In this document: positions 11,440-29,015 of the stretch, piece after piece
How positions within the stretch are numbered: the stretch's first letter is position 1
Layout of the letters: each line of letters begins with the position of its first letter
Source of the DNA: Planktothrix pseudagardhii
Lineage (GTDB): Bacteria > Cyanobacteriota > Cyanobacteriia > Cyanobacteriales > Microcoleaceae
Reading direction: 5' to 3'
DNA: 64,000 nt
Assembly: GCF_904830925.1 (NCBI RefSeq)
Contig: NZ_LR882967.1
Location: forward strand, 3,298,106 to 3,362,105
Made by a program: the position numbers and the translations under genes
Notes under the pieces: generated by a model
What the model saw: only the letters and a program-made list of their open reading frames with translations
Told to the model about the DNA's origin: nothing
Database searches by the model: none

Positions 11440-12261
11440 ATGCTCCATCATCGTTACCTTTATTTAACCGGACTTCCTTGCTCTGGGATGTTTTTTGTTA
11501 GTCAACTGTTAGCCCAACATCCTGAAATTAATAGTAATTATTTGCGATCGCCTCTTTGTGACTTACTGCTGAACTTTCGCAACTTTTTGACCACTAACCC
11601 CGAATTAATTAACCAATTAAATCAGGATTTTAAGGGGACAATGGAGCGATCACTCTTAGGAATGAGAGGGTTTATCAACGGATGGTCTGAACCGATCTCT
11701 CAACCTTGGATTGTTGATTTTCATCCCCAATGGTTGGAGCATTTAGAGTTAGTTAATTTAATTGATCCTGATTTTAAAATGGTTATTTTTGTCAGAGAAT
11801 TAGGTCAAATCTATGGTGCGATAGAAACACAACATCAAAAAACATTACTATTAGATTTTCCTGATAAATTAGCTTCTATTTCACGAGTAGAACGCGCTCA
11901 AAAATTATTTATTCCTCCAGGGATTATCGGTTCAAGTCTCAAGGCTTTAGAACAAATTCAAGACTTAGAAATTAGTTTACAGGAACGATTATTTTATGTC
12001 GTTTACGAGCATTTAATGACGAATCCTCAAGAAGTCTTAACAGAATTATTCAGTTGGTTAAACCTCCAACCCATTACACCGAATTTAACCTTAATTAATT
12101 TTGAATTATCTAATTATTCCCAGTCTTTTGGTAAATATGTCGAAGAACCCTATAATCCCCATCAGCCATTAGTGAATTATCTGCTACCCAAACGTTTTGA
12201 AACCACAATTCAACAGAATTTTACTTGGTTTTATCAAACGTTTTACCCCGGTTTATTGTAA
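11440..12261 (+). CDS. Sulfotransferase-family-like protein with divergent PAPS-binding motifs.
   Basis: The N-terminal LTGLPCSGMFFVSQLLAQHPEI resembles the 5'-PSB loop (PKSGTT-like) of sulfotransferases. A later IFVRELGQIYGAIET resembles the 3'-PB RDPRD..S motif. The assignment is tentative. Confidence 0.4.
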   Translation: MLHHRYLYLTGLPCSGMFFVSQLLAQHPEINSNYLRSPLCDLLLNFRNFLTTNPELINQLNQDFKGTMERSLLGMRGFINGWSEPISQPWIVDFHPQWLEHLELVNLIDPDFKMVIFVRELGQIYGAIETQHQKTLLLDFPDKLASISRVERAQKLFIPPGIIGSSLKALEQIQDLEISLQERLFYVVYEHLMTNPQEVLTELFSWLNLQPITPNLTLINFELSNYSQSFGKYVEEPYNPHQPLVNYLLPKRFETTIQQNFTWFYQTFYPGLL

Positions 12262-12299
12262 TTCTCTATGTTTTGTTAACTATTCCCTGCTATAACCCT

Positions 12300-13040
12300 A
12301 TGACTTTAAATCCTCTCATTCTGCATCAAGGATGTTCTCTAACCCTCAAACGCACAACTCCCGATGATGCTATTTTTCTATTTGAAAAAATGTATTCTTG
12401 TTATGAATTTATGCGTTTATTTCGTTTGAATGATACAGCAGAAACCGTAGAAGAAGTTAGAGAAAAATTAATCAGAAGATCCCGTTTAACACCTGCTGAA
12501 AGTGGTTATTTAGAATGTTTAATGATTCATAAACATCATGGCATCATTGGAATTATTGCCGCCGCCGACTATAGTGCTCTCCATAAAAGGGCTGAACTGT
12601 TAATTGGAATTTTTGAAGAAAAATATCGTTCTATTTCCTATGGGATTGAAGCGGGTTTATTAATGACAGATTTAATTTTTAATGCCTATCATTTACATCG
12701 CTATTATGCCTATTGTTATGGTTATAACCATCCTGTCCATGCAGCTTTAATTACCGCAGGATTTCAATTAGAAGGAATCATGAAAGAACATTTATATGAT
12801 CCGATCGCTCAACAATATATTGATCTGCACATTTATGCTATGAATGAAACTCAGATGCGACAAAATCCTCGGATTTCTCGTTTATCTAAACGATTAGTTG
12901 GGCGTGATATTACCCAACCTTTAACAGCACCCCTTCCTCCTCCTGATGAATCAAAAATTCCGGGTCTGGGTCGTATTTCCCCATCAGAAAATCAACCTTA
13001 TTTTGCTAAATCAGGAATACTTAAACGAATAAGTTCTTAA
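12300..13040 (+). CDS. GNAT-family N-acetyltransferase (RimJ/RimL-like).
   Basis: The C-terminal ...HPVHAALITAGFQLEGIMKEHLYDP...QYIDLHIYAM is the classic GNAT motif B and C-terminal region. The in-frame ATG at 12300 is a more plausible start than the overlapping upstream start at 12225. Confidence 0.6.
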   Translation: MTLNPLILHQGCSLTLKRTTPDDAIFLFEKMYSCYEFMRLFRLNDTAETVEEVREKLIRRSRLTPAESGYLECLMIHKHHGIIGIIAAADYSALHKRAELLIGIFEEKYRSISYGIEAGLLMTDLIFNAYHLHRYYAYCYGYNHPVHAALITAGFQLEGIMKEHLYDPIAQQYIDLHIYAMNETQMRQNPRISRLSKRLVGRDITQPLTAPLPPPDESKIPGLGRISPSENQPYFAKSGILKRISS

Positions 13041-13864: not shown

Positions 13865-14785
13865 ATGAGTAAATTAAGAGACTATCTGGACAAGAATCCC
13901 CAGCAAGCAAAAAGGCTATTAGGGATGGAATATGAACAGATGATAGAACTCATTCAAGCTGCGGAGTTATTAGAAGAAGAAAAACGACAGGAAAAAGAAA
14001 AAACTAAAATCAGGTTGATTAAAGCAGGTGGGGGTCGTCGGCAGAAATTATCTGTGGAGGAACAAATCTTACTGACTCTAATTTATCTGCATCAAATGCC
14101 GACATTTCAAATGTTAGGGTTACAGTTTGAAGTCAGTGAATCAACAGCGAATGATATTTTCCATAACTGGATAAAAATCTTGAGAGAATTACTACCAGCG
14201 AGTTTGCTAGAGCAAGTAAAAAAAAACGAGAGTGATTGGGAGTGGGTAGAAAAAATTCTGGTGGAATTTGAGTTAGTAGTAGATAGCTATGAACAGCCCA
14301 GGGAAAGACCAACAGACAATGAAGAGCAGAAAAAATATTACTCAGGAAAGAAAAAGACACATACCTTTAAAAATCAAGTCATTGTCATGCCAAATGGAAA
14401 AGAAATAGTGGATGTAGCTGTGGGTTATACCGGAGCAACAAGTGATCTGAAATTGTGGAGAGAAAGAAGCCAGGAATTGGGGAATAATCAAAAATACAGA
14501 GGGGATAAAGCTTATGTAGGAGAAACAGCAATTAATACACCGTATAAGAAACCGAGGAATCAAGAGATGTCGGCGGAAAAGCGAGAAGAAAATCGGTTAA
14601 AAGCCCAACAAAGGATTGTAGTTGAACATTTAATAAGACTGATAAAAATTTATCGAGTTGCTTCAGAAAGATTTCGGTTAAAGAGGCAAAATTATGAAGC
14701 AGTAATCTTGACAGTATGTGGATTAATAAGATGGCGAATAGGAGCGATTGTATTACCATCTAAGAATTGCCCAGAATTCTTTTGA
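13865..14785 (+). CDS. IS5-family (DDE_Tnp_4 / Harbinger-like) transposase.
   Basis: The central motifs YSGKKKTHTFKNQVIV...VAVGYTGATSD...YRGDKAYVGE...NTPYKKPRNQEMSAEKREENRLKAQQRIVVEHLIRLIKIYR fit DDE_Tnp_4. A short GGGGTAAAA...TTTTACCCC inverted repeat sits just upstream (13826-13858). Confidence 0.75.
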   Translation: MSKLRDYLDKNPQQAKRLLGMEYEQMIELIQAAELLEEEKRQEKEKTKIRLIKAGGGRRQKLSVEEQILLTLIYLHQMPTFQMLGLQFEVSESTANDIFHNWIKILRELLPASLLEQVKKNESDWEWVEKILVEFELVVDSYEQPRERPTDNEEQKKYYSGKKKTHTFKNQVIVMPNGKEIVDVAVGYTGATSDLKLWRERSQELGNNQKYRGDKAYVGETAINTPYKKPRNQEMSAEKREENRLKAQQRIVVEHLIRLIKIYRVASERFRLKRQNYEAVILTVCGLIRWRIGAIVLPSKNCPEFF

Positions 14786-15880: not shown

Positions 15881-16999
15881 TCAGGGCTGTTTCATTTTCC
15901 CAAATTGGGGAGTCAAATTGAGTCCCCAATTTTTAGGAATGAGGCGAAAAAGTTGTCCTTCTGTTATTGATACAAAACCCCAACTTCTGAAAAGATTGAT
16001 TACCAGAGTTTTAAGAGTTGAAAAGTTGCTAGCTGCTTGAAAGTTACGAATTCGGCTTTTATCTTCTTGAAAAATTACATCTTTTACCCAATGGTATTGA
16101 TTCTCAATCCCCCAATGTCCTTTAATGATTTGAGCTAAGGTTTGAGCTTCGTTAACGGCACTACTGATATAATATACTTTTTCTTGATAGGGTTTTTTTC
16201 CTCTGTTGCCACTTCTTTCTATCTGAATCACAAGTTTCAGATGTTTCCAGCCTTTGTGAAAGTTGTTATTGACTTGATAAATGGAAACTTTTCGAGTCAC
16301 TTTTCTGCCATGGCTGTGTTCATGAGTCACATCTACACTCACAGGATTTTCACTTTTTATTACCGCTTCAACTTGCTCATATAACTTTTTTTGATTTTTC
16401 TTTAAAGCCATTATATAATCATTCCCGCTCTCAATAACTAGGGCAGCAGTTTTCTGATTACAGTGCAACGCATCAAAGGTTATTACTTTTCTTTTTAACT
16501 GGCAATCCCTTACTATCTTTTGGGCTTGGCTGATTTCTGATTCTTTTTTGTTCTCCATCTTTCTCAGGTTTAATACGCATCCTGTTCTTTGACTAAACAG
16601 TGCAACAATCATCACAAAATTTTGGGATTTATCTCCAAAATCTTTGAGAGTGCTTCTCAGGCTTTTTCCATCTACTGCTAACCAATCTAGTTCTTCTTGA
16701 TGCGGATAATTACAAGTAGCCCATTCATTAAATATCTCAATTAAATTTAACCAATCTACTCCTTGTATTACTCTTCTTATTGTTGAGTATGATGGCAGTT
16801 TTTCTAGCTTGATTTTTAAAACTTGACTCAGTTGGTATTGATTGATTTTCGCAAAATTTTCGAGTTCTCTGTACCCTAAATTTCTCGACATTAGCCCCAA
16901 AATGACTATTAATAATACTAGCCATATTGGATGCCTTGTTCCCTGGGCTTTCCGGTAATCCTTGACTTTTTTCAGTTTTTCTATTAGAGTTGTTAGCAT
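15881..16999 (-). CDS. ISAs1-family transposase (H-repeat-associated, DDE_Tnp_1 with N-terminal DDE_Tnp_1_assoc domain).
   Basis: The N-terminus KDYRKAQGTRHPIWLVLLIVILGLMSRNLGYRELENFAKIN is the ISAs1-associated domain. The DDE core includes ...LAVDGKSLRS...ITFDALHCNQK...HWGIENQYHWVKDVIFQEDKSR. Confidence 0.8.
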   Translation of the reverse strand: MLTTLIEKLKKVKDYRKAQGTRHPIWLVLLIVILGLMSRNLGYRELENFAKINQYQLSQVLKIKLEKLPSYSTIRRVIQGVDWLNLIEIFNEWATCNYPHQEELDWLAVDGKSLRSTLKDFGDKSQNFVMIVALFSQRTGCVLNLRKMENKKESEISQAQKIVRDCQLKRKVITFDALHCNQKTAALVIESGNDYIMALKKNQKKLYEQVEAVIKSENPVSVDVTHEHSHGRKVTRKVSIYQVNNNFHKGWKHLKLVIQIERSGNRGKKPYQEKVYYISSAVNEAQTLAQIIKGHWGIENQYHWVKDVIFQEDKSRIRNFQAASNFSTLKTLVINLFRSWGFVSITEGQLFRLIPKNWGLNLTPQFGKMKQP

Positions 17000-17253
17000 C
17001 TTTATTTTTACAAAAAAATCAGCGACCGCTTTTGATTTTATCAGCTAGCAATCGCTATTTCTTTACTCTTTTCCCCCCGACTTTGAAACAGCCCTGGTTC
17101 AAGTCGGGGGTGATGCCTGTTATGAAAATTATGGAGGGTGTGAGCATTTCCTCTCTAGCAGAGCTAATGCTAGAGCAATGGGCATTGGCTCTGCTCCAGT
17201 CAGCATCCCCATCCACTGAACTCGATGACAGTATGGAGGAAATCGCTCTATGA
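16990..17253 (+). pseudogene. Probable 3' remnant of an upstream biosynthetic gene cut off by the ISAs1 insertion. Its stop overlaps the NRPS start codon (ATGA).
   Basis: The ORF ends ...SISSLAELMLEQWALALLQSASPSTELDDSMEEIAL. Its TGA overlaps the ATG of the NRPS at 17250-17253. Its 5' part runs into the ISAs1 element, so only the last 65 or so codons can be native. Confidence 0.3.
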
Positions 17254-20200
17254 ACCTTAAGCAATTTGTAGCTGAACTCGCCCTAGCTGGTGTGAAGTTG
17301 TGGGTCGAAGACGACCAGTTGCGCGTGCGGGCACCAAAGAAGGTACTGACACCAGAGGTACGTAATTTATTGGCATTGCATAAGGCAGAACTTGTAAAGT
17401 TGCTACAGAACAGCAATGCGATCGCCAATGATACTGACCTACCCCTTCTAAGAGTTTCGCGAACTGGTAACTTGCCTCTGTCTTTTGCCCAAGAAGGACT
17501 GTGGTTCTTGAGCCAGTTGGAGCCAACTAACCCCTTCTACAACGTACCACTAGCTCTGCGACTTAATGGTTCTCTCAACGTTGTCGCTTTAGAGAAAAGC
17601 CTCAACAAGATAATTCAACGCCACGAGGTCTTACGCACCAACTTCACAACGGTTGAGGGGCAACCCGTTCAGGTTATTGCTCTTGGCTTGACCTTGAGTG
17701 TGCAAGTCATAGATTTGAGTGAGCTACCTGAGAGTGAAAGAGAAATTGCTTGGGGGCTAAAAGCCAGGGCACAAATCCAGCAACCCTTTGACCTCAGTAG
17801 CTCTGGGTTGATTCAAGCTTCTGTGCTAAAGCTAACACCGACAGAACATATCTTGTTACTAACAATACATCACATTGTCTGGGATGCTCCTTCAGAGGGC
17901 GTATTGGTCAAGGAGTTAGCAGCTTTCTACACAGCCTACTGCAATGACTTGCTACCAGAGCTACCAGAGCTACCGATTCAGTACGCCGACTTTGCTGTTT
18001 GGCAGCGGCAGTGGTTACAGGAAGACATACTAGAGTCTCAACTTGCTTATTGGAAGCAACAACTGTCTGGTGCGCCAGAAATATTGGAACTGCCAACTGA
18101 CCGAGTGCGAAAAGCAACTCAAACGTTTCGAGGGGCGTGTCACCGACAAGCACTCTCAAAAGAACTAACAGAGGCTTTGATGATTTTAAGTCAACGCAAA
18201 GGAGTTACTCTGTTTATGACGCTGTTGGCGGCGCTCTTCACATTGCTTTACCGTTATACAGAGCAGACCGATATTTGCGTAGGCACGCCTTACGCAGGCC
18301 GGGAGCGCCGTGAGCTTCAGGGATTGATTGGATTGTTTCTCAATACGTTGGTTCTGCGGACTGATATATCAGGTAATCCGAGTTTTGAGGAGCTACTCTC
18401 AAGAGTCCGGGACGTGGCTTTGGGAGCATACGCTCATCATGACCTACCGTTTGAAAAGTTATTAGAACAATTGCAGCCAGCGCGTAACTTAAGCTACACA
18501 CCGTATTTCCAAGTGAGGTTTGTGCTTTACCCAGCGATGCAGATAGACATGGAAGGCTTAACGGTGAGTCCAGTAGCGGTAGAAACAGCTACGGCGAAGT
18601 TGGATTTGTTTGTAGCTTTCGTCAACAGCGACTCTGGACTAATCGGGACGTGGGAATACAATACTGACTTGTTTGATGCCAGTACGATCAATCGCATGGC
18701 TCAACATTTTCAGACCTTACTAGAGGGAATTGTTGCTAATCCTCAACAGAAGGTTTCAGAATTGCCATTGCTCACAGAGCCAGAGCGACACCAGCTATTA
18801 GTAGAGTGGAACAACGCCACAAAAGAGTATCCCTTCAATAAGTGTATCCACCAGTTATTTGAGGAACAGGTGGAGCGATCGCCTGATGCTATTGCGGTGG
18901 TTTTTGAAGGGGAGCAACTGACCTACCAAGATTTGAACCAACGGGCGAACAGAATAGCACATCACTTGAAAACTCTAGGTGTGGAGCCAGAAGTGCTGGT
19001 GGGCATCTACGTTGATCGCTCCTTAGAGATGGTAGTGAGTCTACTTGGCATCCTCAAAACTGGAGGGGCTTATGTGCCTTTAGACCCATCCTATCCCAAA
19101 GAGCGCTTAGCGTTCATGTTGCAAAATTCACAACCAAAGGTGTTGTTGACTCAGGAGTGCTTGATAACAGAACTGCCTGAACATACGGCACAAGTTGTTT
19201 GCTTAGATACAGATAGGCATCTCATTGCTCAACACTCAGAAGAAAATTTAAACCAAACAGCAACAGTTGCTAATTTAGCCTATGTCATTTATACCTCTGG
19301 CTCAACGGGAAAGCCAAAGGGAGTACAGGTGACACACGCTAATTTGTGTCACTATGCCCAAGCAATGAGTCAAGTGCTAAATATCACAGCAGAAGATGTA
19401 TATTTGCACACCGCATCGATTGCTTTCTCATCTTCTGTCAGACAGTTGATCGTGCCTCTGGCTAGTGGGGCAACTGTCAAAATTGCAACTTCTGAACAGA
19501 GAAAAGACCCACAATCACTATTTACGACAATTAAACAACATAGTGTGACAGTTATTGATATTGTCCCCTCTTATTGGCGTAACTGCATTCATACACTTGC
19601 TAGCTTAGAACCTGTTACGAAACAAGCACTGTTAGATAACAAACTGCGTTTAATTGTGTCGGCGAGCGAACCGCTGCTGTCCGATCTTCCTACTCAGTGG
19701 ACGTTTGGTTTTCAGCACAAAGCACGATTAATCAATATGTTTGGTCAAACTGAAACTTGTGGAATTGTTGCCACTTATCCAATTCCGGCACAACAGGATG
19801 AGCCAATCAAAATTGTCCCTATCGGTCGCCCGATCACCAACACACAAATTTATCTGCTCGACTGCCATCTGCAACCAGTCCCTGTTGGTGTACCTGGGGA
19901 AGTGCATATTGGTGGTTTTGGACTGGCGCGAGGCTACCTCAACAGCCCAGAATTGACAAAAGAAAAATTCATCCCCAACCCCTTTAGCCAAGAAGAAGGA
20001 ACACGCCTCTACAAAACCGGGGACAATGCCCGCTACCTTCCAGACGGTAACATTGAGTTCCTTGGTCGGCTGGATCGTCAAGTGAAGATTCGCGGTTTCC
20101 GTATTGAACTCGGAGAAATCGAAGCAGCGCTAGCTCAACACCCAGAGGTACGGGAGACAGTAGTTTTAGCAAGGGATGACCAACCAGATAACAAACGACT

Positions 20201-21503
20201 GGTAGCTTATGTTGTTCCCAACCATGAACCTCCTGCCACCATTGAACTGCGGCACTTCCTCCAACAAAAGCTCCCAGACTACATGGTGCCGGGAGCCTTT
20301 GTGATGCTTTCTTCTTTACCTCTCACCCCCAATGGTAAGGTAGACCGTCGCGCCTTGGAGACACCAGATACGGAATTAAGTAACTCAATGGGCTTTGTCC
20401 CTCCCCGTGACACAGTTGAACAGCAACTACAGCAAATTTGGTCAGAGGTTTTGAAGCTTCCGACTGTTGGAATGAAGGATAACTTCTTTACTTTCGGAGG
20501 TCATTCTCTTTTAGCTGTACTCTTAATGGCTCAAATTTCGCGGCATTTTGGGAAAAATCTGCCCATAGCAACGCTTTTCTCTAGCCCAACTATCGAACAG
20601 CTAGCTAGTTGTCTTCGATCCGAAACTCATTCCTTGCCTTGGTCTCCTTTGGTAGCAATTCAGTCTGGCACCGAGAAGCGACCTTTCTTCTTTGTGCCTG
20701 GAGTTGGGGGAAATGTGATTTACTTATATGAGCTAGCGCGTCATCTTGGATCTGAGCAACCCTTCTACGGTCTGCAAGCACGGGGACTGGATGGCGAATC
20801 AGAGCCTTTTACACAGTTGGAAGAGATAGCCACCTACTATATTGAAGCAATACAGACAGTTCAGCCCTCTGGTCCGTACCTGCTGGGAGGGCATTCGTTT
20901 GGAGGTGTAGTTGCCTTTGAGATGGCAACTCAGTTGCTCAAACAGGGGCATGAGGTCGCTCTACTTGCAATTATTGACGTTGTTGCGCCAATTGTTGCTA
21001 ATAAGCCGAATTATTCTGATGAAGATGAGGTGGCATATCTTTTTGATTTTGCCAGCTATATTGAATATATGTTCTCCCTCAAGTTGGAGGTATCTAAAGA
21101 AACTCTTGCTTCCCTATCTCAGGAGGAGCAATTGAACTATCTCAAAGAACGGTTGATACGGGTCAATTTGCTACCCCCTGATGCGGGAATAGGGTTAGTA
21201 CGGGGGCTAGTGCAAGTATACATTGCGTCCCTGAAAGCTCATCGTGCTTATTTGCCTTCGGGGCTGCAACAAGCTCCCATTACTCTTTTCCGTTCTAGTG
21301 AGGTTGATGTATTTGAGGGTGATACAGAAGAGTTGAAACAAAGGCGAAAAGAACCTGCTTTGGGCTGGAACGAGTTTTCTTCTACTATAGACATTCATGT
21401 TGTTCCAGGGAACCATAGCACCATGATGCAACAGCCGCACGTACAGGTGTTAGCCACACAACTTCTCTCTTGCCTAAAGCAAACACAGGCTCCATTGGCT
21501 TAG
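17250..21503 (+). CDS. Single-module nonribosomal peptide synthetase: N-terminal TubC-type docking domain, then C, A, T (PCP) and TE domains.
   Basis: Docking domain: MNLKQFVAELALAGVKLWVEDDQLRVRAPKKVLTPEVRNLLALHKAELVKLL. C domain: HHIVWDA motif near 17868. A domain: A3 LAYVIYTSGSTGKPKGV near 19290, A5 NMFGQTE, A7 YKTGDNARY, A8 GRLDRQVKIRGFRIELGEIE, A10 PNGKVDRRAL. T domain: FFTFGGHSLLAV, Ser near 20503. TE: GGHSFGG near 20889, with a C-terminal GNHSTMM His. Confidence 0.85.
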   Translation: MNLKQFVAELALAGVKLWVEDDQLRVRAPKKVLTPEVRNLLALHKAELVKLLQNSNAIANDTDLPLLRVSRTGNLPLSFAQEGLWFLSQLEPTNPFYNVPLALRLNGSLNVVALEKSLNKIIQRHEVLRTNFTTVEGQPVQVIALGLTLSVQVIDLSELPESEREIAWGLKARAQIQQPFDLSSSGLIQASVLKLTPTEHILLLTIHHIVWDAPSEGVLVKELAAFYTAYCNDLLPELPELPIQYADFAVWQRQWLQEDILESQLAYWKQQLSGAPEILELPTDRVRKATQTFRGACHRQALSKELTEALMILSQRKGVTLFMTLLAALFTLLYRYTEQTDICVGTPYAGRERRELQGLIGLFLNTLVLRTDISGNPSFEELLSRVRDVALGAYAHHDLPFEKLLEQLQPARNLSYTPYFQVRFVLYPAMQIDMEGLTVSPVAVETATAKLDLFVAFVNSDSGLIGTWEYNTDLFDASTINRMAQHFQTLLEGIVANPQQKVSELPLLTEPERHQLLVEWNNATKEYPFNKCIHQLFEEQVERSPDAIAVVFEGEQLTYQDLNQRANRIAHHLKTLGVEPEVLVGIYVDRSLEMVVSLLGILKTGGAYVPLDPSYPKERLAFMLQNSQPKVLLTQECLITELPEHTAQVVCLDTDRHLIAQHSEENLNQTATVANLAYVIYTSGSTGKPKGVQVTHANLCHYAQAMSQVLNITAEDVYLHTASIAFSSSVRQLIVPLASGATVKIATSEQRKDPQSLFTTIKQHSVTVIDIVPSYWRNCIHTLASLEPVTKQALLDNKLRLIVSASEPLLSDLPTQWTFGFQHKARLINMFGQTETCGIVATYPIPAQQDEPIKIVPIGRPITNTQIYLLDCHLQPVPVGVPGEVHIGGFGLARGYLNSPELTKEKFIPNPFSQEEGTRLYKTGDNARYLPDGNIEFLGRLDRQVKIRGFRIELGEIEAALAQHPEVRETVVLARDDQPDNKRLVAYVVPNHEPPATIELRHFLQQKLPDYMVPGAFVMLSSLPLTPNGKVDRRALETPDTELSNSMGFVPPRDTVEQQLQQIWSEVLKLPTVGMKDNFFTFGGHSLLAVLLMAQISRHFGKNLPIATLFSSPTIEQLASCLRSETHSLPWSPLVAIQSGTEKRPFFFVPGVGGNVIYLYELARHLGSEQPFYGLQARGLDGESEPFTQLEEIATYYIEAIQTVQPSGPYLLGGHSFGGVVAFEMATQLLKQGHEVALLAIIDVVAPIVANKPNYSDEDEVAYLFDFASYIEYMFSLKLEVSKETLASLSQEEQLNYLKERLIRVNLLPPDAGIGLVRGLVQVYIASLKAHRAYLPSGLQQAPITLFRSSEVDVFEGDTEELKQRRKEPALGWNEFSSTIDIHVVPGNHSTMMQQPHVQVLATQLLSCLKQTQAPLA

Positions 21504-21577
21504 TAATTGGTCTGTTAAGTGGAAATTTTTGAGGTAATTAACAAGCTCTTTCATTTGACTAAAAAAGCTCAATCATT

Positions 21578-22549
21578 ATGAAAATAGGAATTTTCGACTC
21601 GAATCACAATCTACCCTTGCTAGTAGAACCTGACACAAAACGCGAATCGTCTAATTTTGATTATCTCCTTTCATGGTACAAAGATAATAGTGAACTTTTA
21701 TCAAACAAAATTTTGAAACACGGAGCGATTCTTTTTCGAGGTTTTGATGTCAATACAATCTTAGCTTTTGAAAAATTCGTTAAATCTATTTCAGGTAATT
21801 TAATAGATTATGTTGATGGAAATTCTCCCCGAACCCAACTAGCTAGTGGTATTTATACTTCAACTGAATATCCAGCTGAATACTCCATTAGTTTGCATAA
21901 TGAGTTATCCTACTCTAGCCAATGGCCAGACCAACTCTATTTTTGCTGTATTACTGCGCCTAAAGAGGGCGGAGAAACACCAATTGCTGATAGTCGCCAA
22001 ATCCTCAAAAGTCTTAACCCAAAGATTGTGGAAAAGTTCACACTTAAACAAGTGAAGTATATCCGCAATTTACCTAGTAGTAATGGCATGGGAGTTTCAT
22101 GGCAAGATGCTTTTAAAACTTCAGATAAGTCCCTAGTAGAAGAGCATAATAGAAAAGCTGGTATGGATTTTGAGTGGAAGAAGGATGGAGGATTGCGATT
22201 AAGCCAGATTCGTCCTGCTATTGCAACTCATCCTCGTACAGATGAACAAGTTTGGTTTAATCAAGCCGATCTATTTCATCCATCTACTCTTCCTAAAAAT
22301 ATCTACGAAGCTATGATGTTTTATTTTGACGGTAACGAAGAGGAACTCCCTCACTATGCTTGCTTTGGCGACAATACTCCAATTGATGTTTCAATGCTAG
22401 ATGAAATTAGAGAAACTATTGGTAAACAAACTGTTGTTTTTCCTTGGCGGGAGGGTGATGTTCTAGTCATAGATAATATGTTAGTTTGTCATGGACGAAG
22501 ACCGTTTTTTGGTTCGAGAAAAATTTTGATTTCTATGTCACAATTCTGA
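21578..22549 (+). CDS. Fe(II)/2-oxoglutarate-dependent oxygenase of the TauD/clavaminate-synthase-like family. Probably an amino-acid beta-hydroxylase (VioC/AsnO/SyrP-like).
   Basis: The HxE facial triad start (SLHNELSY) and the C-terminal DNMLVCHGRRPF (second His plus 2OG-binding Arg) are typical of the CAS-like branch of PF02668. The gene sits between NRPS genes. Confidence 0.7.
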   Translation: MKIGIFDSNHNLPLLVEPDTKRESSNFDYLLSWYKDNSELLSNKILKHGAILFRGFDVNTILAFEKFVKSISGNLIDYVDGNSPRTQLASGIYTSTEYPAEYSISLHNELSYSSQWPDQLYFCCITAPKEGGETPIADSRQILKSLNPKIVEKFTLKQVKYIRNLPSSNGMGVSWQDAFKTSDKSLVEEHNRKAGMDFEWKKDGGLRLSQIRPAIATHPRTDEQVWFNQADLFHPSTLPKNIYEAMMFYFDGNEEELPHYACFGDNTPIDVSMLDEIRETIGKQTVVFPWREGDVLVIDNMLVCHGRRPFFGSRKILISMSQF

Positions 22550-22574
22550 TTATCTTAGCTATAAGTGTAAGTAG

Positions 22575-24356
22575 ATGTATCAATTCCAAGAGTCTCTTCC
22601 AAAACTACCTTTGCCCAAACTCTCAGACACCTGCGCTCGTTATATCGAGATGGTAACACCGCTGTTGAGTGACACAGAATTAGAGCGAACTAAGACCGCC
22701 GTAAGGGAATTTCAACAAGGGAGTGGAGTCGAACTACAGAAGCAATTGGAGATGATTGACCGCTCAACTAATACTAACTATTTACAACAATTTAAAGAGG
22801 AAACCTATTTAGAAATGCGGTCTTCACAACTAAATATGAGAAGCACAGGGGTGGCTTCGCCCGTCTTGACAACCTCGAAATATTCCTTTACCCGCATTGT
22901 CGCCATCATAATTTTTAATACCCTCCAATTCCACCTGAAAATCAAATATCGGGAACTAGAGCCAGATCGCGATGTATTTCAACGAAACAAACCTCCCCTT
23001 TGTATGGCTCAGTATGACAATTTGTTTGGCAGTGCGCGAATTCCTGGAATCAAATGTGACAGCTTTCAAAGGGCGAAAAATTCTGAGCATATTGTGGTCA
23101 TCCGACGGGATACGTTTTACGTCTTAAAGTTGCTCCCAGGGGATACGTTACCGTCGGTGGAAGCTGTAGCACAGCAAATTGATTGGATTCTGGAAAATAC
23201 TCATCCAGGGGAACTTCCTGTGGGAGTGCTGACATCTCTCCCCAGAGAACAGTGGGCAACAGTTCGCTCCTACCTCACGAACCTAGATGCAGAAAACGCT
23301 TGCTCTCTAGAACTATTGGATAGCGCCTTATTTGTTGTCTGTTTAGACGAAATAACGCCTCCCGATTTGGAAAGGCTAGCAAGAACTGCCTTTACTGGAG
23401 ATGGTGGGCGAAACCGATGGTTCGATAAACCTATTCGGCTCGTTTTTAACTCTGAGGGTCAGTTCGCTGTAACAATTGAACACAGTAATGTCGATGGTTA
23501 TCCGGTAGCACGGTTGATAAGCGAGGTCAACCGGGAGCTTGAACCCCTTGAAGAATCCCTTACATCCTCCAGTTCAGTCGAACTCGAACCCCCACAGCGA
23601 CTGTGGTGGAAATTAGACCAGAAACTCCGAGAAGAAGTAGCTCAAGCATTAACAGATGCAGAGTGTCTGAGCGAACAAATTCAGATGGGGATAATAATTT
23701 TCGACGAATTTGGGTCAGACTTTATCCAGCAACATGGTTTAATTGCTGATGCTGTGTTTCTCCTGTCGCTACAGATTGCTTACACTCGCCTGCATGGTAA
23801 GATTACTACTAGCGCTTGGCAAGCTGTACACAACAGAACCTTCCGGTACGGGCGGCACGACTACGCCTTAGTAGTTACACCCGAATCTGTAGAACTCATT
23901 CAAGCCTTTACTGAGGGAGCTTCAGACGAAGTGCGATATCGGACTCTAAAACGTGCTGTTAACGCTCATTTATGGCGAGTGTTTAACACTAAAAACGGGC
24001 AGGGAGTGGTCATGCACCTTTATGCGCTTTATAACTTAGCTCGCTATAAAGGCAGCAGTGTTCTCGATATTTTTCAAGATAAAACCTTTGAAGAAGTTAT
24101 CTTAGACCCAAGCTTCTCCGCTTCTGCCCTAAGTAATAAAATGGGTGTAGAGATAGCCTGCCCCAGTCCATGTCGCGACTATGGAATCGGCTATGTCATC
24201 GATCGCAACAAGATTACCTTTGCTGTAACGAGTAAACATCTACAGCCGGAAGATTTCATCGCTCTTGTCAAGCAGTGTCTTTCAGAAATCGGAAAATTGT
24301 TAATAGAGCAACGACACCCAGATTCCAATATAAGAATACATTCATCACCACAATGA
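22575..24356 (+). CDS. Choline/carnitine O-acyltransferase family protein (593 aa).
   Basis: The N-terminal LPKLPLPKLSDTCARYIEMVTPLL matches the conserved LPxLPVPxLxxTLxxYL start of carnitine acyltransferases. The catalytic-His region TIEHSNVDGYPVARL matches the EHSxxDG motif. Length fits the family. Confidence 0.7.
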   Translation: MYQFQESLPKLPLPKLSDTCARYIEMVTPLLSDTELERTKTAVREFQQGSGVELQKQLEMIDRSTNTNYLQQFKEETYLEMRSSQLNMRSTGVASPVLTTSKYSFTRIVAIIIFNTLQFHLKIKYRELEPDRDVFQRNKPPLCMAQYDNLFGSARIPGIKCDSFQRAKNSEHIVVIRRDTFYVLKLLPGDTLPSVEAVAQQIDWILENTHPGELPVGVLTSLPREQWATVRSYLTNLDAENACSLELLDSALFVVCLDEITPPDLERLARTAFTGDGGRNRWFDKPIRLVFNSEGQFAVTIEHSNVDGYPVARLISEVNRELEPLEESLTSSSSVELEPPQRLWWKLDQKLREEVAQALTDAECLSEQIQMGIIIFDEFGSDFIQQHGLIADAVFLLSLQIAYTRLHGKITTSAWQAVHNRTFRYGRHDYALVVTPESVELIQAFTEGASDEVRYRTLKRAVNAHLWRVFNTKNGQGVVMHLYALYNLARYKGSSVLDIFQDKTFEEVILDPSFSASALSNKMGVEIACPSPCRDYGIGYVIDRNKITFAVTSKHLQPEDFIALVKQCLSEIGKLLIEQRHPDSNIRIHSSPQ

Positions 24357-24366
24357 GCTTTGAAAA

Positions 24367-25512
24367 ATGGACTTTTCATGGACAGAGGAACAAATTCAGT
24401 TTAGAGAGAAGATTGTTAAATTCGCCCAACAAGAGTTGCAATCAAATCTAATTGACCTAGATTGGCGAGAAGAATTTAACCGAGAAAGTTGGGAAAAATG
24501 TGGGAAATTTGGTCTGATCGGTCTGCCAATTCCTGAACATTATGGGGGAACTGGGACAGATATTCTTACAACGATTTGTGCCTTGGAAGCTTTAGGTTAT
24601 GGTTGTAAAGACAATGGTCTAATCTTTGCCATCAACGCTCATATATGGGCTGGCGAAATACCGATTTTAACCTTTGGCACCGAAGCTCAAAAACAAAAGT
24701 ATCTCCCCAAACTCTGTAGCGGTGAATTCATTGGCGCTCATGGGGCAAGTGAACCAGAAGCAGGTTCGGATATTTACAATCTTAAGACTACTGCCAAAAT
24801 ACAGGGAGACAAGTACATCTTAAATGGTGTTAAGAATTGGGTCACAAATGGTCCAGTTGCTGACCTTTACATTGTATTTGCGAATGTCGCTCCCGAAAAA
24901 GGAAAACGGGGAATTACTGGATTTATCGTCGAAAAAGATTTTGCCGGAGTCGCGATCAATCGTAAAATTTCCAAAATGGGTTTAAGAACGACTCAGTTAG
25001 GTGAACTGTTCCTAGAAAATTGTGAAGTGCCGAGTGAAAATCGTCTTGGTCAAGAGGGTTCGGGACTTGCTATCTTTAATCACAGTATGGAATGGGAGCG
25101 AGGATTCATTCTTGCCAGTGCGATCGGGACTATGGAACGTCTGTTAGAAAGCTGCATTCAATATGCTAGGAAGCGCCAGCAATTTGGTCAATCGATTGGA
25201 AAATTTCAGTTAGTTAGCAGCAAAATTGTTGACATGAAGATGCGACTTGAAACAGCTAGAGCGCTGCTGTATAAAGTAGGATGGTTAAAAAATAATAAAA
25301 AAACGGCGATTATGGAAGCGGCAATGGCAAAACTTTATATTAGTGAATCTTGGGTGCAGTCCTGCCTTGATGCAATTCAGATTCATGGTGGTTATGGCTA
25401 TCTAACTGAGTTAGAACTAGAACGAGAATTAAGGGATGCGTTAGGGAGCAAGCTTTATTCAGGAACCTCTGAGATTCAGTACCAAATAATTGCCCAATTT
25501 ATGGGATTATAG
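24367..25512 (+). CDS. Acyl-CoA dehydrogenase-family flavoprotein. Predicted carrier-protein-tethered prolyl oxidase (PltE/RedW/CloN3/AnaB-like).
   Basis: It has the ACAD fold (MDFSWTEEQ..., GASEPEAGSD, C-terminal ...QIHGGYGY...). It is 381 aa, sits immediately upstream of a stand-alone A domain and a stand-alone PCP, and the stops and starts are closely spaced. Confidence 0.75.
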   Translation: MDFSWTEEQIQFREKIVKFAQQELQSNLIDLDWREEFNRESWEKCGKFGLIGLPIPEHYGGTGTDILTTICALEALGYGCKDNGLIFAINAHIWAGEIPILTFGTEAQKQKYLPKLCSGEFIGAHGASEPEAGSDIYNLKTTAKIQGDKYILNGVKNWVTNGPVADLYIVFANVAPEKGKRGITGFIVEKDFAGVAINRKISKMGLRTTQLGELFLENCEVPSENRLGQEGSGLAIFNHSMEWERGFILASAIGTMERLLESCIQYARKRQQFGQSIGKFQLVSSKIVDMKMRLETARALLYKVGWLKNNKKTAIMEAAMAKLYISESWVQSCLDAIQIHGGYGYLTELELERELRDALGSKLYSGTSEIQYQIIAQFMGL

Positions 25513-25624
25513 AGGGTGATTTTTTGTTTACGCGAGAGCATTTGCGAGATTACGAGACAACGCTGCGGCGCGCTACGAAGAATTGGTACGAATTCATCTC
25601 GCTGTATTATCGTTTGAACATTCT

Positions 25625-27244
25625 ATGGAAGACAGCCCAAAACCCATGCCGTATCTACTGCAACAGCTTTTAGAAATTAGTGCCAAGCAATATCCAGACC
25701 GGGAAGCTGTAATCTATAAAAATAGCAGCATCACGTATCGGGAGTTAGACCAAGTTTCTAATCAGTTAGCCCACCTCTTGATAAGTTGCGGGATATCAAG
25801 AGGCGATCGCGTCGGCATTTACGTGAACAAATCCATTGAAGCAGTCATTGCCATTTTCGGTATCCTTAAAGCTGGATCTGTCTACGTTCCCCTAGACCCC
25901 TTAGCTCCTGCGAAGCGGATAGGCTTTATCATTGACAATTGCCAGATGAAGGCTTTGGTGAGTACCCATAAAAAGATAGCCAGCCTTCAACTGCCAAACA
26001 CCTCTGGTGTCCAGTGCCTGGTACTCGCTGACGATGAAGCACAACAGGACACGGGTAATCTGTCAAATGTCAGGATGGTGTCTTGGCAAGAGGTGTTGCA
26101 AGCACCGCCAAACCCATCACCACCCAGCAATTTGATTGAAGACGATCTTGCCTACATTCTCTACACATCCGGCTCCACTGGCACTCCCAAAGGGGTGATG
26201 ATTAGCCATCGAGCTTCTCTAACCTTTGTCAACTGGGCTTATGATTGCTTTCAGGTACAAAGGAGCGATCGCGTTTCCAATCACGCCCCACTTCATTTCG
26301 ATCTTTCCATCTTTGATATCTTCACCACTATCAAAGCAGGTGCGACTGTCATTCTGGTACCACCGGAACTCTCAGTGTTTCCCAGAAACCTCGCTCAGTT
26401 TATTGAAGAACAACAAATTACCATCTGGTATTCTGTCCCTTCAGTGCTGAGACAGCTAATTGTTTACGGCAACCTGCATCAGGCTCAATTTCCCCATATT
26501 CGGACGATTTTGTTTGCGGGGGAAGTGTTCCCAGTTAAATACCTGCGTCAACTTATGGAGTTGCTACCGCAAGCCAACTACTATAATCTCTACGGACCCA
26601 CAGAAACAAATGTCTGTACTTACTATCCGGTAAAGGAAATTCCTCCTGAAGAGGTAAGAACTCTGCCCATTGGCAAAGCTTGTGCCAACACAGAGGTATT
26701 TGCCGTCAATGAACACAAAGAAATTACCAAACCAGGAGAAGTTGGGGAACTTTACGTGCGTAGCCCCTCCTTAATGAAAGGATACTGGGGAAATCATGAC
26801 AAAACCCAACAGGCTCTCACACCTTTCCCCGTACCAGGTTGCGGATGGTTAGAAAAAGTTTACCGAACTGGGGATTTAGTGAAACTCAATTCTGATGGCA
26901 ACTATATTTATTTAGGTCGTCGCGATAACCAGATTAAGAGCCGAGGATACCGAATTGAACTGGATGAAATTGAAACGACGCTATACGCTCATCCTGCAAT
27001 TGTTGAAGCAGCCGTAATTGCTATTCCCGATGAGGAAATCGGCAAGAAAATCAAGGCTATAATTGCCACACAGGATGGAAATAATCTCAAAAAGAGCGAT
27101 GTAGAATATTTTTGTGCACAGCGTCTACCTAAATACATGATACCGGAGCTAATTGAGTTTCGTTCTGGGTTACCTAAAACCCCTACAGGCAAGATTGACA
27201 AAACCTTACTGCGTACCGAAGAACTTCAAGAGAATTCAAAATAG
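25625..27244 (+). CDS. Free-standing adenylation enzyme (amino-acid adenylation domain). Predicted L-proline activating (PltF/RedM/CloN4/AnaC-like).
   Basis: Core motifs: YTSGSTGTPKGV (A3), FDLSIFDIF (A4, Asp present), NLYGPTETNV (A5), YRTGDLVKL (A7), GRRDNQIKSRGYRIELDEIE (A8), PKTPTGKIDK (A10). The hand-aligned specificity residues are about D-L-F-Y-L-A-L-V-C-K. The ATG at 25625 is preferred over the TTG at 25583. Confidence 0.75.
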   Translation: MEDSPKPMPYLLQQLLEISAKQYPDREAVIYKNSSITYRELDQVSNQLAHLLISCGISRGDRVGIYVNKSIEAVIAIFGILKAGSVYVPLDPLAPAKRIGFIIDNCQMKALVSTHKKIASLQLPNTSGVQCLVLADDEAQQDTGNLSNVRMVSWQEVLQAPPNPSPPSNLIEDDLAYILYTSGSTGTPKGVMISHRASLTFVNWAYDCFQVQRSDRVSNHAPLHFDLSIFDIFTTIKAGATVILVPPELSVFPRNLAQFIEEQQITIWYSVPSVLRQLIVYGNLHQAQFPHIRTILFAGEVFPVKYLRQLMELLPQANYYNLYGPTETNVCTYYPVKEIPPEEVRTLPIGKACANTEVFAVNEHKEITKPGEVGELYVRSPSLMKGYWGNHDKTQQALTPFPVPGCGWLEKVYRTGDLVKLNSDGNYIYLGRRDNQIKSRGYRIELDEIETTLYAHPAIVEAAVIAIPDEEIGKKIKAIIATQDGNNLKKSDVEYFCAQRLPKYMIPELIEFRSGLPKTPTGKIDKTLLRTEELQENSK

Positions 27245-27263
27245 TTCAATAAGGAGATTGATA

Positions 27264-27533
27264 ATGACCGCCGTAAACAAGTACACGGAAGCACAGATAG
27301 AACAGATAATTAAAGAGCATATTGTCCAAAATTTCATGTACGATAGACCCGATATGGTTTTATCAAATGATTTGTCCATAATCGAAGAAGGACTGGTTGA
27401 CTCGCTGGGCATTTTTCGACTGGCTAGCTTTCTGGAAGAAAAGTTTGGTATTACCTTAAATCCAGAAGAATTCTTACTGGAGAATTTTGAAACAGTTAAC
27501 GTTATCAAATCTTTCGTTATCAGCAGACTGTAA
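27264..27533 (+). CDS. Free-standing peptidyl/acyl carrier protein (89 aa).
   Basis: The phosphopantetheine attachment motif is EEGLVDSLGIFRL. A strong RBS AAGGAG lies 8 nt upstream of the ATG. The gene directly follows the A enzyme. Confidence 0.75.
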   Translation: MTAVNKYTEAQIEQIIKEHIVQNFMYDRPDMVLSNDLSIIEEGLVDSLGIFRLASFLEEKFGITLNPEEFLLENFETVNVIKSFVISRL

Positions 27534-27647
27534 CAGTTGTTGCTGCCAATTTCTAACTACCTGCTAGGTTAGATTTTTACAGGCTACGCCATCAAAATCT
27601 ACTTTGACCAAATTAGCTGAAGTTTTAAACAGGCAAACGTTGACGGC

Positions 27648-29015
27648 TCAACCTATGCGTGAATCAGGCAGTTGCTCGGCGACAACCAGAGGTTCATCTT
27701 TCAATGTTCCGGACACCTGCACCGCAAGCACTACCACTCTTATTGCTGCGAACATTGATAGAGCCAACCATAAGAGATGATTGCTCTGATAATGCCATGC
27801 CATGACTGCTAAGGGCGCAAATCCAAACATTGCTCCGCTTAAAGTAGCGTTACGTATAAAATGCCCTTGGGCTAAACCTGCAAAGTATCCATCCAGTATC
27901 ATAGCAATTGAACTAAATCCCAGTCTGGAGAGTAGCCAAGAAACATAGATTTTAACAAGTTCCTTCACTTCACTATGATTGGTTAATAACCCAAAGACTG
28001 TATTCGGGAACAGGATAGACACTCCAGAACAAATTAATGCCGCCAGTAGGCTGGTTGAGACTGCCACCTGCAATAGGGGCAACAATCGATCTATTGTTTG
28101 TTTGCCTTTAAAATTTCCACCCAAAGTCTCGGTAGCAAATCCTATTCCTTCAAAAAAGTAACTGGAAAGCATTATTACTTGTAAGAGTAAGGCATTTTCA
28201 GCCAGGATAGTTGTCCCCATTGCAGAACTTAGAGCCGTGAAAAAGGTGGCGACGAACATATTAGCCGAAGACCTGATAAAGAGATTGCCGTTCAGGGTAA
28301 AAGTCGCTTTAAATGCGCTGGCATCCCAAAACTTTCTGGCTGCACTTCGAGCTTCCTTCCACTCGATATTGAGACTCGCCAAAATTATGCCTACTACTAA
28401 CACCAGATACTGGCTAATTGCCTGAGACAGTCCCGCCCCCGTGCTTGCCCAGTCCCAACGGACAATAAACAGGTAGTCGAACACAACATTAGCTGCATTG
28501 CCTACTAGGGTCATCAGCAACACAAAGCCACTCATTTCTCGTCCGAGAAACCACCCAATCAGAACAAAATTGACGACAACCGCAGGCGCTCCCCAAATTC
28601 GGGCATTGAAATAGTCAATACCTGAAGCCTTAACCTCTGGAGTCACGCTCATTAGACCAAACCACAACTGTTGCAGAGGATATTGCAACAACAGAAGCAG
28701 TCCGCCTATACCCAGTCCGATTAAAGCATTACGCAGTCCCACCAGCAGCATATCTTCGGTGTCATCCCGTCCCACCGCTTGCGCTGTCACTCCAGTGGTT
28801 CCCATGCGTAAAAAGTTCACAATGAAATAGGTGAAGTTAAACAGAGTGGTAGAGAGAGTAACCCCTGCTAAGTGATGGATTTCGGTTAGATGGCCCAGGA
28901 ACGCTAAGCTGATTGTCCCAGCCAGAGGCTCCATAATATTGGACAGGACATTGATGAAAGCTAGTCTAAAGAAGCGAGAAAGGAAGTCGTACCTATTTGG
29001 GAGTGTTATGTTCAT
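27648..29015 (-). CDS. MATE-family efflux transporter, a putative exporter of the cluster product.
   Basis: It has 12 predicted TM helices. The N-terminus ...INVLSNIMEPLAGTISLAFLGHL is typical of NorM/DinF MATE proteins. It is convergent with the biosynthetic genes. Confidence 0.7.
   Translation of the reverse strand: MNITLPNRYDFLSRFFRLAFINVLSNIMEPLAGTISLAFLGHLTEIHHLAGVTLSTTLFNFTYFIVNFLRMGTTGVTAQAVGRDDTEDMLLVGLRNALIGLGIGGLLLLLQYPLQQLWFGLMSVTPEVKASGIDYFNARIWGAPAVVVNFVLIGWFLGREMSGFVLLMTLVGNAANVVFDYLFIVRWDWASTGAGLSQAISQYLVLVVGIILASLNIEWKEARSAARKFWDASAFKATFTLNGNLFIRSSANMFVATFFTALSSAMGTTILAENALLLQVIMLSSYFFEGIGFATETLGGNFKGKQTIDRLLPLLQVAVSTSLLAALICSGVSILFPNTVFGLLTNHSEVKELVKIYVSWLLSRLGFSSIAMILDGYFAGLAQGHFIRNATLSGAMFGFAPLAVMAWHYQSNHLLWLALSMFAAIRVVVLAVQVSGTLKDEPLVVAEQLPDSRIG

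Follow-up and report, generated by a model that had tools for sequence, protein, structure and literature searches.

In the cyanochelin clusters, as described in the cyanochelin papers, C-like and TauD elements precede the beta-hydroxyaspartate (beta-OH-Asp) modules of nonribosomal peptide synthetases (NRPSs), the adenylation (A) domains of these modules carry the canonical code DLTKIGHVGK, and the resulting motif is beta-OH-Asp-Gly-beta-OH-Asp/DHABA. The Asp beta-hydroxylases have been described as TBH, IBH and CyanoBH clades (PMC12971057). A neighbourhood of the same type, in which condensation (C), A, thiolation (T) and thioesterase (TE) domains are arranged as C-A-T(-TE) beside a TauD oxygenase, as in the cyanochelin proteins CcsI/CcsL with CcsK or a fused hydroxylase and in the SyrE/SyrP type, is found in Planktothrix pseudagardhii, within the 64,000 nucleotides of contig NZ_LR882967.1 (positions 3,298,106 to 3,362,105, forward strand) that were analysed here and are called the window. 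In contrast to the Asp modules of the cyanochelins and SyrE, the pocket of this NRPS is without Asp235, Lys278 and His322, and its code is SSRDVAMGIK. The prediction of A-domain specificity rests on a frame set by Asp235 and Lys517, and domains outside this frame are called "unknown". The feature reported here is an orphan, mobile A-domain specificity core without Asp235, which takes the place of Asp cores and partners with carrier-protein hydroxylases.

The A domain and its A4 motif

The features of the NRPS gene and of the adjacent oxygenase gene are as follows, with the supporting evidence in brackets.

17250..21503, +, NRPS gene, 1417 amino acids (aa), with TubC_N dock, C, A, T and TE domains (open reading frame; PF18563, PF00668, PF00501, PF13193, PF00550, PF00975)
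17466..18800, +, condensation domain, residues 73-517 (catalytic motif HHIVWDA at 17868-17888)
18858..20339, +, adenylation domain, residues ~537-1030 (full set of A1-A10 motifs; AlphaFold2 and Foldseek)
19050..19889, +, SSRD cassette, the recombined pocket core, residues ~601-880, from A2 to just before A6 (segment identities, GC content)
19425..19436, +, A4 motif F-S-S-S (alignments to LgrA, GrsA and canonical domains)
19428-19430, +, Ser727, equivalent to GrsA position 235, followed by Ser728 at position 236 (alignment)
19440-19442, +, Arg731, equivalent to GrsA position 239 (alignment)
19557..19559, +, Asp770, equivalent to GrsA position 278 (alignment)
19656..19664, +, Val803 (position 299) and Ala805 (position 301), the corrected code positions (alignment)
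19734..19766, +, A5 motif NMFGQTE, with Met830 (322), Gly838 (330) and Ile839 (331) (alignment)
20337..20339, +, Lys1030, equivalent to GrsA Lys517, in the A10 motif NGKVDR (aligns with GrsA SNGKIDR)
20421..20615, +, thiolation domain (GGHSL at 20484-20519)
20682..21443, +, thioesterase domain (GGHSFGG, Ser nucleophile)
21578..22549, +, TauD-family Fe(II)/2-oxoglutarate (2OG) oxygenase, proposed hydroxylase of the carrier-bound substrate (PF02668, 138 bits)

The peptide ASIAFSSSVRQ is the translation of window positions 19413-19445 (+) and lies inside the A domain of the NRPS, with the A3 motif YTSGSTGKPKG at residues 681-691 and FSSS at residues 726-729. The domain scores 317 bits with PF00501, 55 bits with PF13193 and 450 bits with TIGR01733 (cutoff 317), and it has the core motifs A1-A10 and the Lys517 equivalent of NRPS amino-acid adenylation domains as defined by TIGR01733. 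Asp235, the Asp of FDxS in A4, is replaced by Ser727, while the T-domain serine, the TE GxSxG and all remaining core motifs are intact.

The absence of Asp235, which the initial annotation had read from a hand alignment, is borne out by every approach used. SIAFSSS aligns gap-free from A3 onto SFSFDGS and TYIFDIS in the LgrA A domains (HMMER, both domains), and BLASTP against a segment of GrsA pairs the two as ASIAFSSSVRQL / ASISFDASVWEM, giving D235->S, A236->S, W239->R and T278->D. Among 120 database matches aligned to a profile, D occupies the position-235 column in every canonical domain (more than 50). In the AlphaFold2 model of NRPS residues 501-1050 (predicted local distance difference test score, pLDDT, 91.1; predicted template modelling score, pTM, 0.85), the best Foldseek fold matches of which are Txo2, McyB-C1A1, ApnA-A1 and GrsA 1AMU, the A4 helix begins exactly at Ser727. 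The register held throughout, with Ser rather than a restored Asp at 235.

GGE in the GrsA alignment served as the landmark for the code positions, and as a benchmark the same reading of canonical domains from the related loci gave DILQLGLIWK, DLYNLSLIWK, DVWHFSLIDK, DFWNIGMVHK and DLTKVGHVGK. The ten residues obtained for the window are S235, S236, R239, D278, V299, A301, M322, G330, I331 and K517. The code first proposed, S-S-R-D-I-S-M-G-I-K, was correct at eight of ten positions; those assigned to 299 and 301 (I and S) had been taken one residue too early and are V and A. The pocket departs from the canonical Asp code DLTK(V/I)GH(I/V)GK, with its Asp235, Lys278 and His322. In A domains for beta-alanine and other beta-amino acids the acidic residue is shifted to position 236 (V/G-D-x-V...), where the window domain has Ser; a beta-alanine-type code, GDWVTSLADK, was read by the same extraction from another A domain in the related loci L006/L061. 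The A5 motif NMFGQTE is indeed atypical, as had been noted, and its M, G-Q-T-E-T and the next G are invariant in 21 family members.

The ratio of nonsynonymous to synonymous substitution rates (dN/dS) relative to the closest relative, the locus of Microcoleus sp. D2_18a_B4 (L011), is 0.24 for the A domain, 0.28 for the whole NRPS gene and 0.24-0.32 across the NRPS, TauD and acyltransferase genes. A degenerate or inactive A domain is ruled out by the intact motifs, by these ratios and by the conservation of the code across phyla, and FSSS marks an intact A domain under selection.

The SSRD family and the mosaic A domain of the window

No database entry is identical in sequence to the window NRPS. 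A database search with the A domain retrieved dozens of homologs, 52-68% identical, that share the motif HTAS(I/F)(A/S)FSSSVRQL. In all, the code, with L or V at 299, is present in more than 100 A domains. As these are only 52-78% identical, the shared code is not a matter of chance. SSRDLAMGIK is the majority code of the family, SSRDVAMGIK also occurs, and a sister group has ALRDV(I/V)IGVK. At position 235 the family has one of several small or neutral residues, namely S, A, V, G, T or N, and never D or E, while Arg239 and Asp278, in which the initial annotation saw hints of a polar or charged side chain, are real and are invariant hallmarks of the family. In genomes scanned at one representative per species there were 293 related loci, 80 of which were kept for study, with neighbour counts made over 73 non-redundant loci; in the locus descriptions below, X denotes the SSRD-type A domain or the module carrying it. 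The hosts are Nostocales, Scytonema, Microcoleus and other cyanobacteria, many Pyrinomonadaceae and Blastocatellia, as well as Chloroflexota, Verrucomicrobiota and others. When 1.84 billion library proteins were searched with a profile of the A4-A5 region, 403 representatives matched at E<=1e-30, and 101 of the 141 new top matches contain F[SA][SA]S.RQ. The orphan SSRD class comprises hundreds of loci in at least five phyla and is linked to carrier-protein hydroxylases. A literature search for the SSRD code in both spellings returned no match and no named substrate, and the Ser235 domain of Pseudanabaena galeata is of a different family (pocket S-I-F-H-S-G-I-C-M).

Exchange of cores or subdomains between A domains is known from microcystin McyB/McyC variants and from hormaomycin synthetase, and the window A domain likewise contains a segment of other phylogenetic origin, here of ~280 residues and reaching from A2 to A6. 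In contrast to these exchanges, the code of the unit is non-canonical and uncharacterised, and the unit is met again in other phyla and other architectures. The mosaic is apparent from the identities of the window NRPS to two homologous modules, the Asp-type module of Nostoc punctiforme UO1 (L097) and the SSRD-type module of Scytonema (L014).

Residues 1-520, dock and C domain: L097 70%, L014 52%
Residues 521-600, A domain N-terminus: L097 76%, L014 65%
Residues 601-880, A domain core: L097 36%, L014 86%
Residues 881-1045, A domain C-terminus: L097 88%, L014 68%
Residues 1046-1417, T and TE domains: L097 84%, L014 39%

In Nostoc punctiforme UO1 a TauD follows a TubC_N-C-A-T-TE or C-A-T-TE module with code DLTKEAHVGK, and the same holds for a second Asp-type ortholog, in Lyngbya sp. 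CCAP 1446/10 (L098; code DLTK-GHVGK). The A core is 36-37% identical to these two, with flanks at 70-88%. The nearest pocket-bearing partial proteins found by a search with the C-terminal 528 residues, P0382 (85% in T-TE) and P0383 (74%), both have DLTK..HVGK. GC content is 0.42-0.43 across 19000-19750 and 0.46-0.50 on both sides. Because core and flank identities are reversed between the Scytonema module and the two Asp-type modules, the pocket-bearing core (nucleotides ~19050-19889) is a recombination cassette that replaced the canonical aspartate core of a former Asp module. A core of ~280 residues can accordingly be placed into an existing Asp module, and with its substrate assigned the A2-to-A6 boundary would offer a natural, pre-validated guide for A-domain core swapping.

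The TauD protein encoded next to the module has the motifs H-N-E at residue 107 and H-G-R at residue 305, which are also present in the NRPS-fused TauD domain of L025, and it shows the fold, the His-x-Asp/Glu...His triad and the 2OG-binding Arg of NRPS-associated Asp beta-hydroxylases, with the corresponding activity being predicted. It is 85% identical to the TauDs of the Asp-type loci L097/L098, its closest homologs outside Microcoleus, and it shares 44-50% of its residues with the stand-alone TauDs that adjoin X modules and 41% with the NRPS-fused TauD. The module that comes next is Asp-specific for the homologs in L097/L098 and for the fused TauD of L025; the TauD of the window is paired with the SSRD pocket. 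The most frequent neighbour of X is a TauD of this subfamily (28 of 73 non-redundant loci), which lies directly upstream of every X member interrupted by FkbM for which enough flank is available, and is missing where the X module is missing, as in the metagenome loci L093/L094, which hold a polyketide synthase (PKS)-TE and the acyltransferase.

A conserved lipopeptide cluster of Nostocales, which begins with fatty acyl-AMP ligase (FAAL) and acyl carrier protein (ACP) domains, has the order FAAL-ACP-C / TauD / C-like(no HHxxxDG)-A(X)-T-C-A(Gly)-T-C-TauD / ...A(Asp). X is placed at a beta-OH-Asp position in these clusters, since the X-Gly-Asp layout with C-like and TauD elements matches that of the cyanochelins. 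The C-like domain before A(X) (L025 8057-9400 and its equivalents) is without HHxxxDG and 25% identical to catalytic C domains, and may be a non-catalytic 'interface' type that recruits hydroxylases. As judged from these sequence comparisons, the SSRD pocket is non-canonical, conserved and mobile, and two independent settings have it in place of an Asp core.

Elsewhere X occurs in A-T-TE proteins adjoining glycosyltransferase, Wzy and flippase genes, in A-T loading modules, in A domains interrupted by an FkbM methyltransferase, in lone C-A-T-TE genes of Scytonema and Tolypothrix, and, in acidobacterial polysaccharide loci, in A-T-C-T proteins after PAP2 and NHL-propeller genes. The last arrangement is conserved in L048 (7528-12994) and 20 similar acidobacterial loci as a group of three, PAP2 phosphatase, NHL/SGL beta-propeller and A(X)-T-C-T, set in polysaccharide loci with initiating sugar transferase, flippase, Wzy and GT4 genes. 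The sister ALRD type also adjoins genes for a PIG-L deacetylase and a UDP-sugar dehydrogenase. A second A domain without Asp235 (code STPKTTIGTK) is found in L001, in a TubC_N-C-A-T-TE gene (3048-6749) with TauD, SSRD-type C-A-T, sulfotransferase, PhyH and FGE-sulfatase-like genes as neighbours. Eight SSRD/ALRD members (P0009, P0021, P0030, P0036, P0075, P0080, P0089 and P0095) bear the JGI label 'aspartate racemase', found on only one match with a canonical code; the label, curious beside an Asp-like reading, is probably an inherited annotation and was not used as evidence. An assignment of the substrate would annotate many cryptic clusters, among them the widely conserved siderophore-like lipopeptide clusters of Nostocales and the polysaccharide-linked NRPSs of acidobacteria.

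Candidate substrates of the SSRD pocket

The best overall explanation, to which about an even chance is given, is an aspartate-like substrate that is hydroxylated on the carrier, and the odds that X is aspartate itself or a close isomer are put slightly above even. X would have to be close enough to aspartate for the same C, TauD and TE, because the cassette replaced an Asp core while these remained orthologous. The SSRD cassette would load the aspartate-like acid onto the T domain, TauD would hydroxylate the tethered acid at C3, the C domain would acylate the amine of the acid with the upstream chain, and the TE would release the product. The native upstream chain would be a polyketide handed over via the TubC-type dock; in the present genome, where the PKS is deleted, the donor, if any, would be the AnaD-like carrier.

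More speculatively, the amino-acid head group may be bound one level deeper in the pocket, with Asp278 facing the NH3+ and Arg239 the alpha-COO-, in which case the side-chain (beta) carboxyl would be adenylated. Where a terminal module releases its product by hydrolysis, alpha and beta thioesters would lead to the same N-acyl-(3-hydroxy)aspartate, and the core swap may have been tolerated or even neutral because both modes of activation would give the same released product. The Glu domains of Bacillus use K239 together with D278 to hold the distal carboxylate. The A domains that activate an omega-carboxyl, McyB-A2 (beta-methyl-isoAsp), McyE (gamma-D-Glu) and ACVS-A1 (delta-aminoadipate), combine Arg239 with a polar residue at 278 in their codes, and the same combination is present here (Arg731 and Asp770). 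McyE moreover stands at a PKS-to-NRPS junction, like the Microcoleus ortholog; in contrast to the SSRD family, in which this never occurs, all three keep Asp or Glu at 235. Activation through the side-chain carboxyl, as argued from these pocket positions, is tentatively proposed, with a chance below even but not small. If true, it would constitute a new recognition logic for acidic amino acids, predictable from sequence and beyond current predictors, and beta-linked (iso)aspartyl residues, often 3-hydroxylated or O-methylated, would be expected in siderophore-like lipopeptides, PKS-NRPS hybrids and polysaccharide decorations, spread across cyanobacteria and Acidobacteriota. Two further comparisons carry little information: an epimerization (E) motif follows none of 42 X modules and also none of 21 canonical modules, which leaves no power to test for an alpha-amino thioester, and the cyanobacterial C domains compared are 47-56% alike whatever their donor and are thus uninformative on amide versus ester.

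Several points weigh against an aspartate-like substrate and its proposed mode of binding. Core swaps in NRPSs usually change specificity, and orthology of the flanks is no proof of the same substrate. SSRD and canonical Asp cores occur together in single clusters (L019, L025, L031 and others), and because of this co-occurrence they are not simply redundant. No TauD lies within ~10 kb in 45 of the 73 loci, many members are A-T-TE or loading modules of polysaccharide loci in which a need for aspartate is not obvious, and the literature search for the family returned no biochemical datum on any member. The binding-mode argument is built from sequence positions only, and aspartate in the canonical orientation would have its side-chain carboxylate near Asp278, which is unfavourable. 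The literature search gave no match for the comparison codes (McyB-A2 DARHVGIFVK, McyE DPRHSGVVGK and ACVS-A1 EPRNIVEFVK).

The initial annotation had proposed an alpha-hydroxy or alpha-keto acid, joined by the C domain in an ester to a pyrrolyl/dehydroprolyl donor. What remains of this proposal is that canonical anchoring of an alpha-amine through a salt bridge with Asp235 is absent. Ser or Ala at 235/236 could also fit an alpha-OH, and an AnaB/AnaC/carrier cassette lies in the same operon. The keto- and hydroxy-acid A domains of the cyanobacterial depsipeptide synthetases HctE/F, HapC, CrpD and NpnA likewise have Asp235 replaced and stand in-line after a C domain. They differ from the window domain in having Val235 together with a ketoreductase (KR), and the cyanobacterial keto-acid A domains carry this KR embedded between A8 and A9 (PMC4558948), whereas the window domain has Ser235 and Asp-type neighbours, Pfam finds no KR in or near it, and only ~50 residues separate the end of A8 (958) from the start of A9 (1008). 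The variation of position 235 among S, A, V, G, T and N moreover argues against a dedicated hydrogen-bond partner or hydroxyl ligand. The four orthologous modules that are nearest in C/T/TE/TauD identity carry an Asp pocket, with the same TauD of the beta-OH-Asp-associated group, and since this indicates an Asp-like, amide-forming substrate, the hydroxy acid and its ester are left unsupported. As to the donor, the native feeder in the closest relative is a PKS and the proline cassette begins at the synteny break, so that a dehydroprolyl or pyrrolyl donor is conceivable, though less likely than not, and is not native. In sum, an alpha-hydroxy or alpha-keto acid is improbable.

Somewhat less improbable, but still given a low probability, is a C4/C5 dicarboxylic acid without an amine, such as malate, succinate, fumarate or 2-oxo- or 2-hydroxyglutarate, the distal carboxylate of which would be gripped by Arg239 while TauD would supply or add the hydroxyl. 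The invariance of R239 and the lack of acidic residues at 235/236 agree with such a diacid, as does the use of the cassette for starter units and in A-T-TE proteins that neighbour a PIG-L deacetylase and glycosyltransferases, which is what an N-acyl cap would lead one to expect. The GQTET of the A5 motif resembles acyl-CoA synthetases and counts in the same direction. However, the catalytic C domains upstream of X in the window, L011, L014 and L025-type clusters need a nucleophile, the C domain is 70% identical to those of L097/L098, which are expected to form amides by their canonical Asp code, and the invariant Asp278 would be left without a partner. Another small polar or distally charged acid (beta-alanine, gamma-aminobutyric acid, isoserine, glycerate or a sugar acid), for which Arg239 and Asp278 would form a polar floor, has as little to recommend it as the hydroxy or keto acid. 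It would suit the polar pocket (S, S, R, D) and the association of the family with polysaccharide genes, NHL/gluconolactonase-like propellers, FkbM O-methyltransferase inserts and sulfotransferases, but it leaves the replacement of an Asp core with retention of TauD unexplained, and the known beta-alanine codes have Asp236. Glyceric acid, suggested by the sulfotransferase and O-methyltransferase contexts, was rejected, since the known glycerate units of cyanobacterial peptides are installed by FkbH and not by an A domain (PMC6520454).

The rearranged cluster and its surroundings

The genes on either side of the NRPS and TauD genes are listed below.

15881..16999, -, DDE transposase abutting the PKS remnant (Pfam)
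17113..17247, +, PKS remnant, the last ~45 codons, with the ACP end and docking tail (tblastn of L011 PKS residues 2158-2202, 87% aa identity)
22575..24356, +, choline/carnitine O-acyltransferase homolog (Pfam, ligand alignment)
24367..25512, +, AnaB-like prolyl-carrier-protein dehydrogenase (4irn, E 1e-176, ~70% identity; PigA-type 5zw0 only 300 bits)
25583..27244, +, stand-alone type II A domain with the proline code DLFYLAL(V)CK (code)
27264..27533, +, small carrier protein with DSLG serine site and no docking tail (sequence)
27648..29015, -, MATE efflux protein, convergent (profile scan)

Synteny with the Microcoleus locus extends over 17114-24282 at 93% nucleotide identity and breaks off inside the acyltransferase gene, 74 bp short of its stop codon. 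In Microcoleus the module receives its input from an A-T loader and a PKS with ketosynthase (KS), acyltransferase (AT), dehydratase (DH), C-methyltransferase (cMT), KR and ACP domains (KS-AT-DH-cMT-KR-ACP), and is followed by TauD, the acyltransferase and a S-adenosylmethionine (SAM) methyltransferase. The native upstream PKS has been truncated in Planktothrix by an insertion sequence (IS) element, and a PKS was not found elsewhere within the window. The cluster is a rearranged relative of this PKS-NRPS line and not a designed pyrrole-ester pathway. The genes at 24367-29015 resemble the anatoxin starter cassette AnaB/AnaC/AnaD in having an acyl-CoA dehydrogenase, a Pro-code A domain, a small carrier and a MATE gene nearby. 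In contrast to the anatoxin cluster, no anaE-G PKS genes are present in the window and the cassette follows the acyltransferase gene at the synteny break; it is either a relic of an anatoxin starter pathway or a related cassette.

These rearrangements raise the possibility, less than even but not small, that the module is an orphan relic in this genome, which after IS-mediated loss of loader and PKS makes nothing, whatever its substrate. Just 45 PKS codons are left beside the transposase, a second transposase lies farther upstream, no PKS is present in the 64 kb, and the carrier of the proline cassette is without a docking tail for TubC_N. Against this, the NRPS, TauD and acyltransferase genes are intact at the dN/dS of 0.24-0.32 given above (mostly reflecting the time before the deletion), the six genes of 17250-27533 are closely packed on one strand, compatible with a rewired operon, and the PKS could sit elsewhere in the genome.

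The acyltransferase has kept the catalytic His (EHSNVDG) and an oxyanion S-A-S in place of STS. In carnitine acetyltransferase (CrAT) the carnitine carboxylate is bound by Tyr452, Ser454, Thr465 and Arg518, and these sites are occupied here by Trp, Ala, His and Met. Homologs are found at 76-80% identity after PKS-TE in L093/L094 and at 38-41% in L095/L096; the acyltransferase travels with the PKS/TE and not with X. A role in O-acylation or transesterification is a guess. Carnitine or gamma-butyrobetaine, which the pairing of TauD with the acyltransferase had brought to mind as a substrate, was rejected, as the acyltransferase has none of the carnitine-carboxylate ligands and occurs in L093/L094 in the absence of X and TauD, while the cassette is present in many clusters without it.

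In Lyngbya (L098 2305-3009 and 3140-9925) the Asp-type ortholog is preceded by dihydrodipicolinate synthase (DHDPS) and methyltransferase genes, including a guanidinoacetate-N-methyltransferase-like one (PF27704), and its first module, with the code DVEFMAQTIK, shares 85% identity with the Microcoleus loader (L011 24-1223). Three DDE transposases of different families are present in the Planktothrix window, at 463-1575 (-), 13865-14785 (+) and 15881-16999 (-). Overlapping sulfotransferase (PF13469) and GNAT (PF13302) genes at 11440-13040 (+), separated from the NRPS gene by two of these transposases, have no counterpart near the related loci. Positions 1662-11363 (+) encode a giant secreted adhesin-like protein of 3233 aa, the repeats of which are of the FG-GAP, cadherin-like/Ig and RTX types. 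The genes at 50778-53927 (-), 57563-59416 (-) and 60976-62874 (-) code for a type I restriction R subunit and two FtsH paralogs, and the remainder of the 30-64 kb region consists of housekeeping genes (psbA-like, FtsY, NusB, LpxB, Dus).

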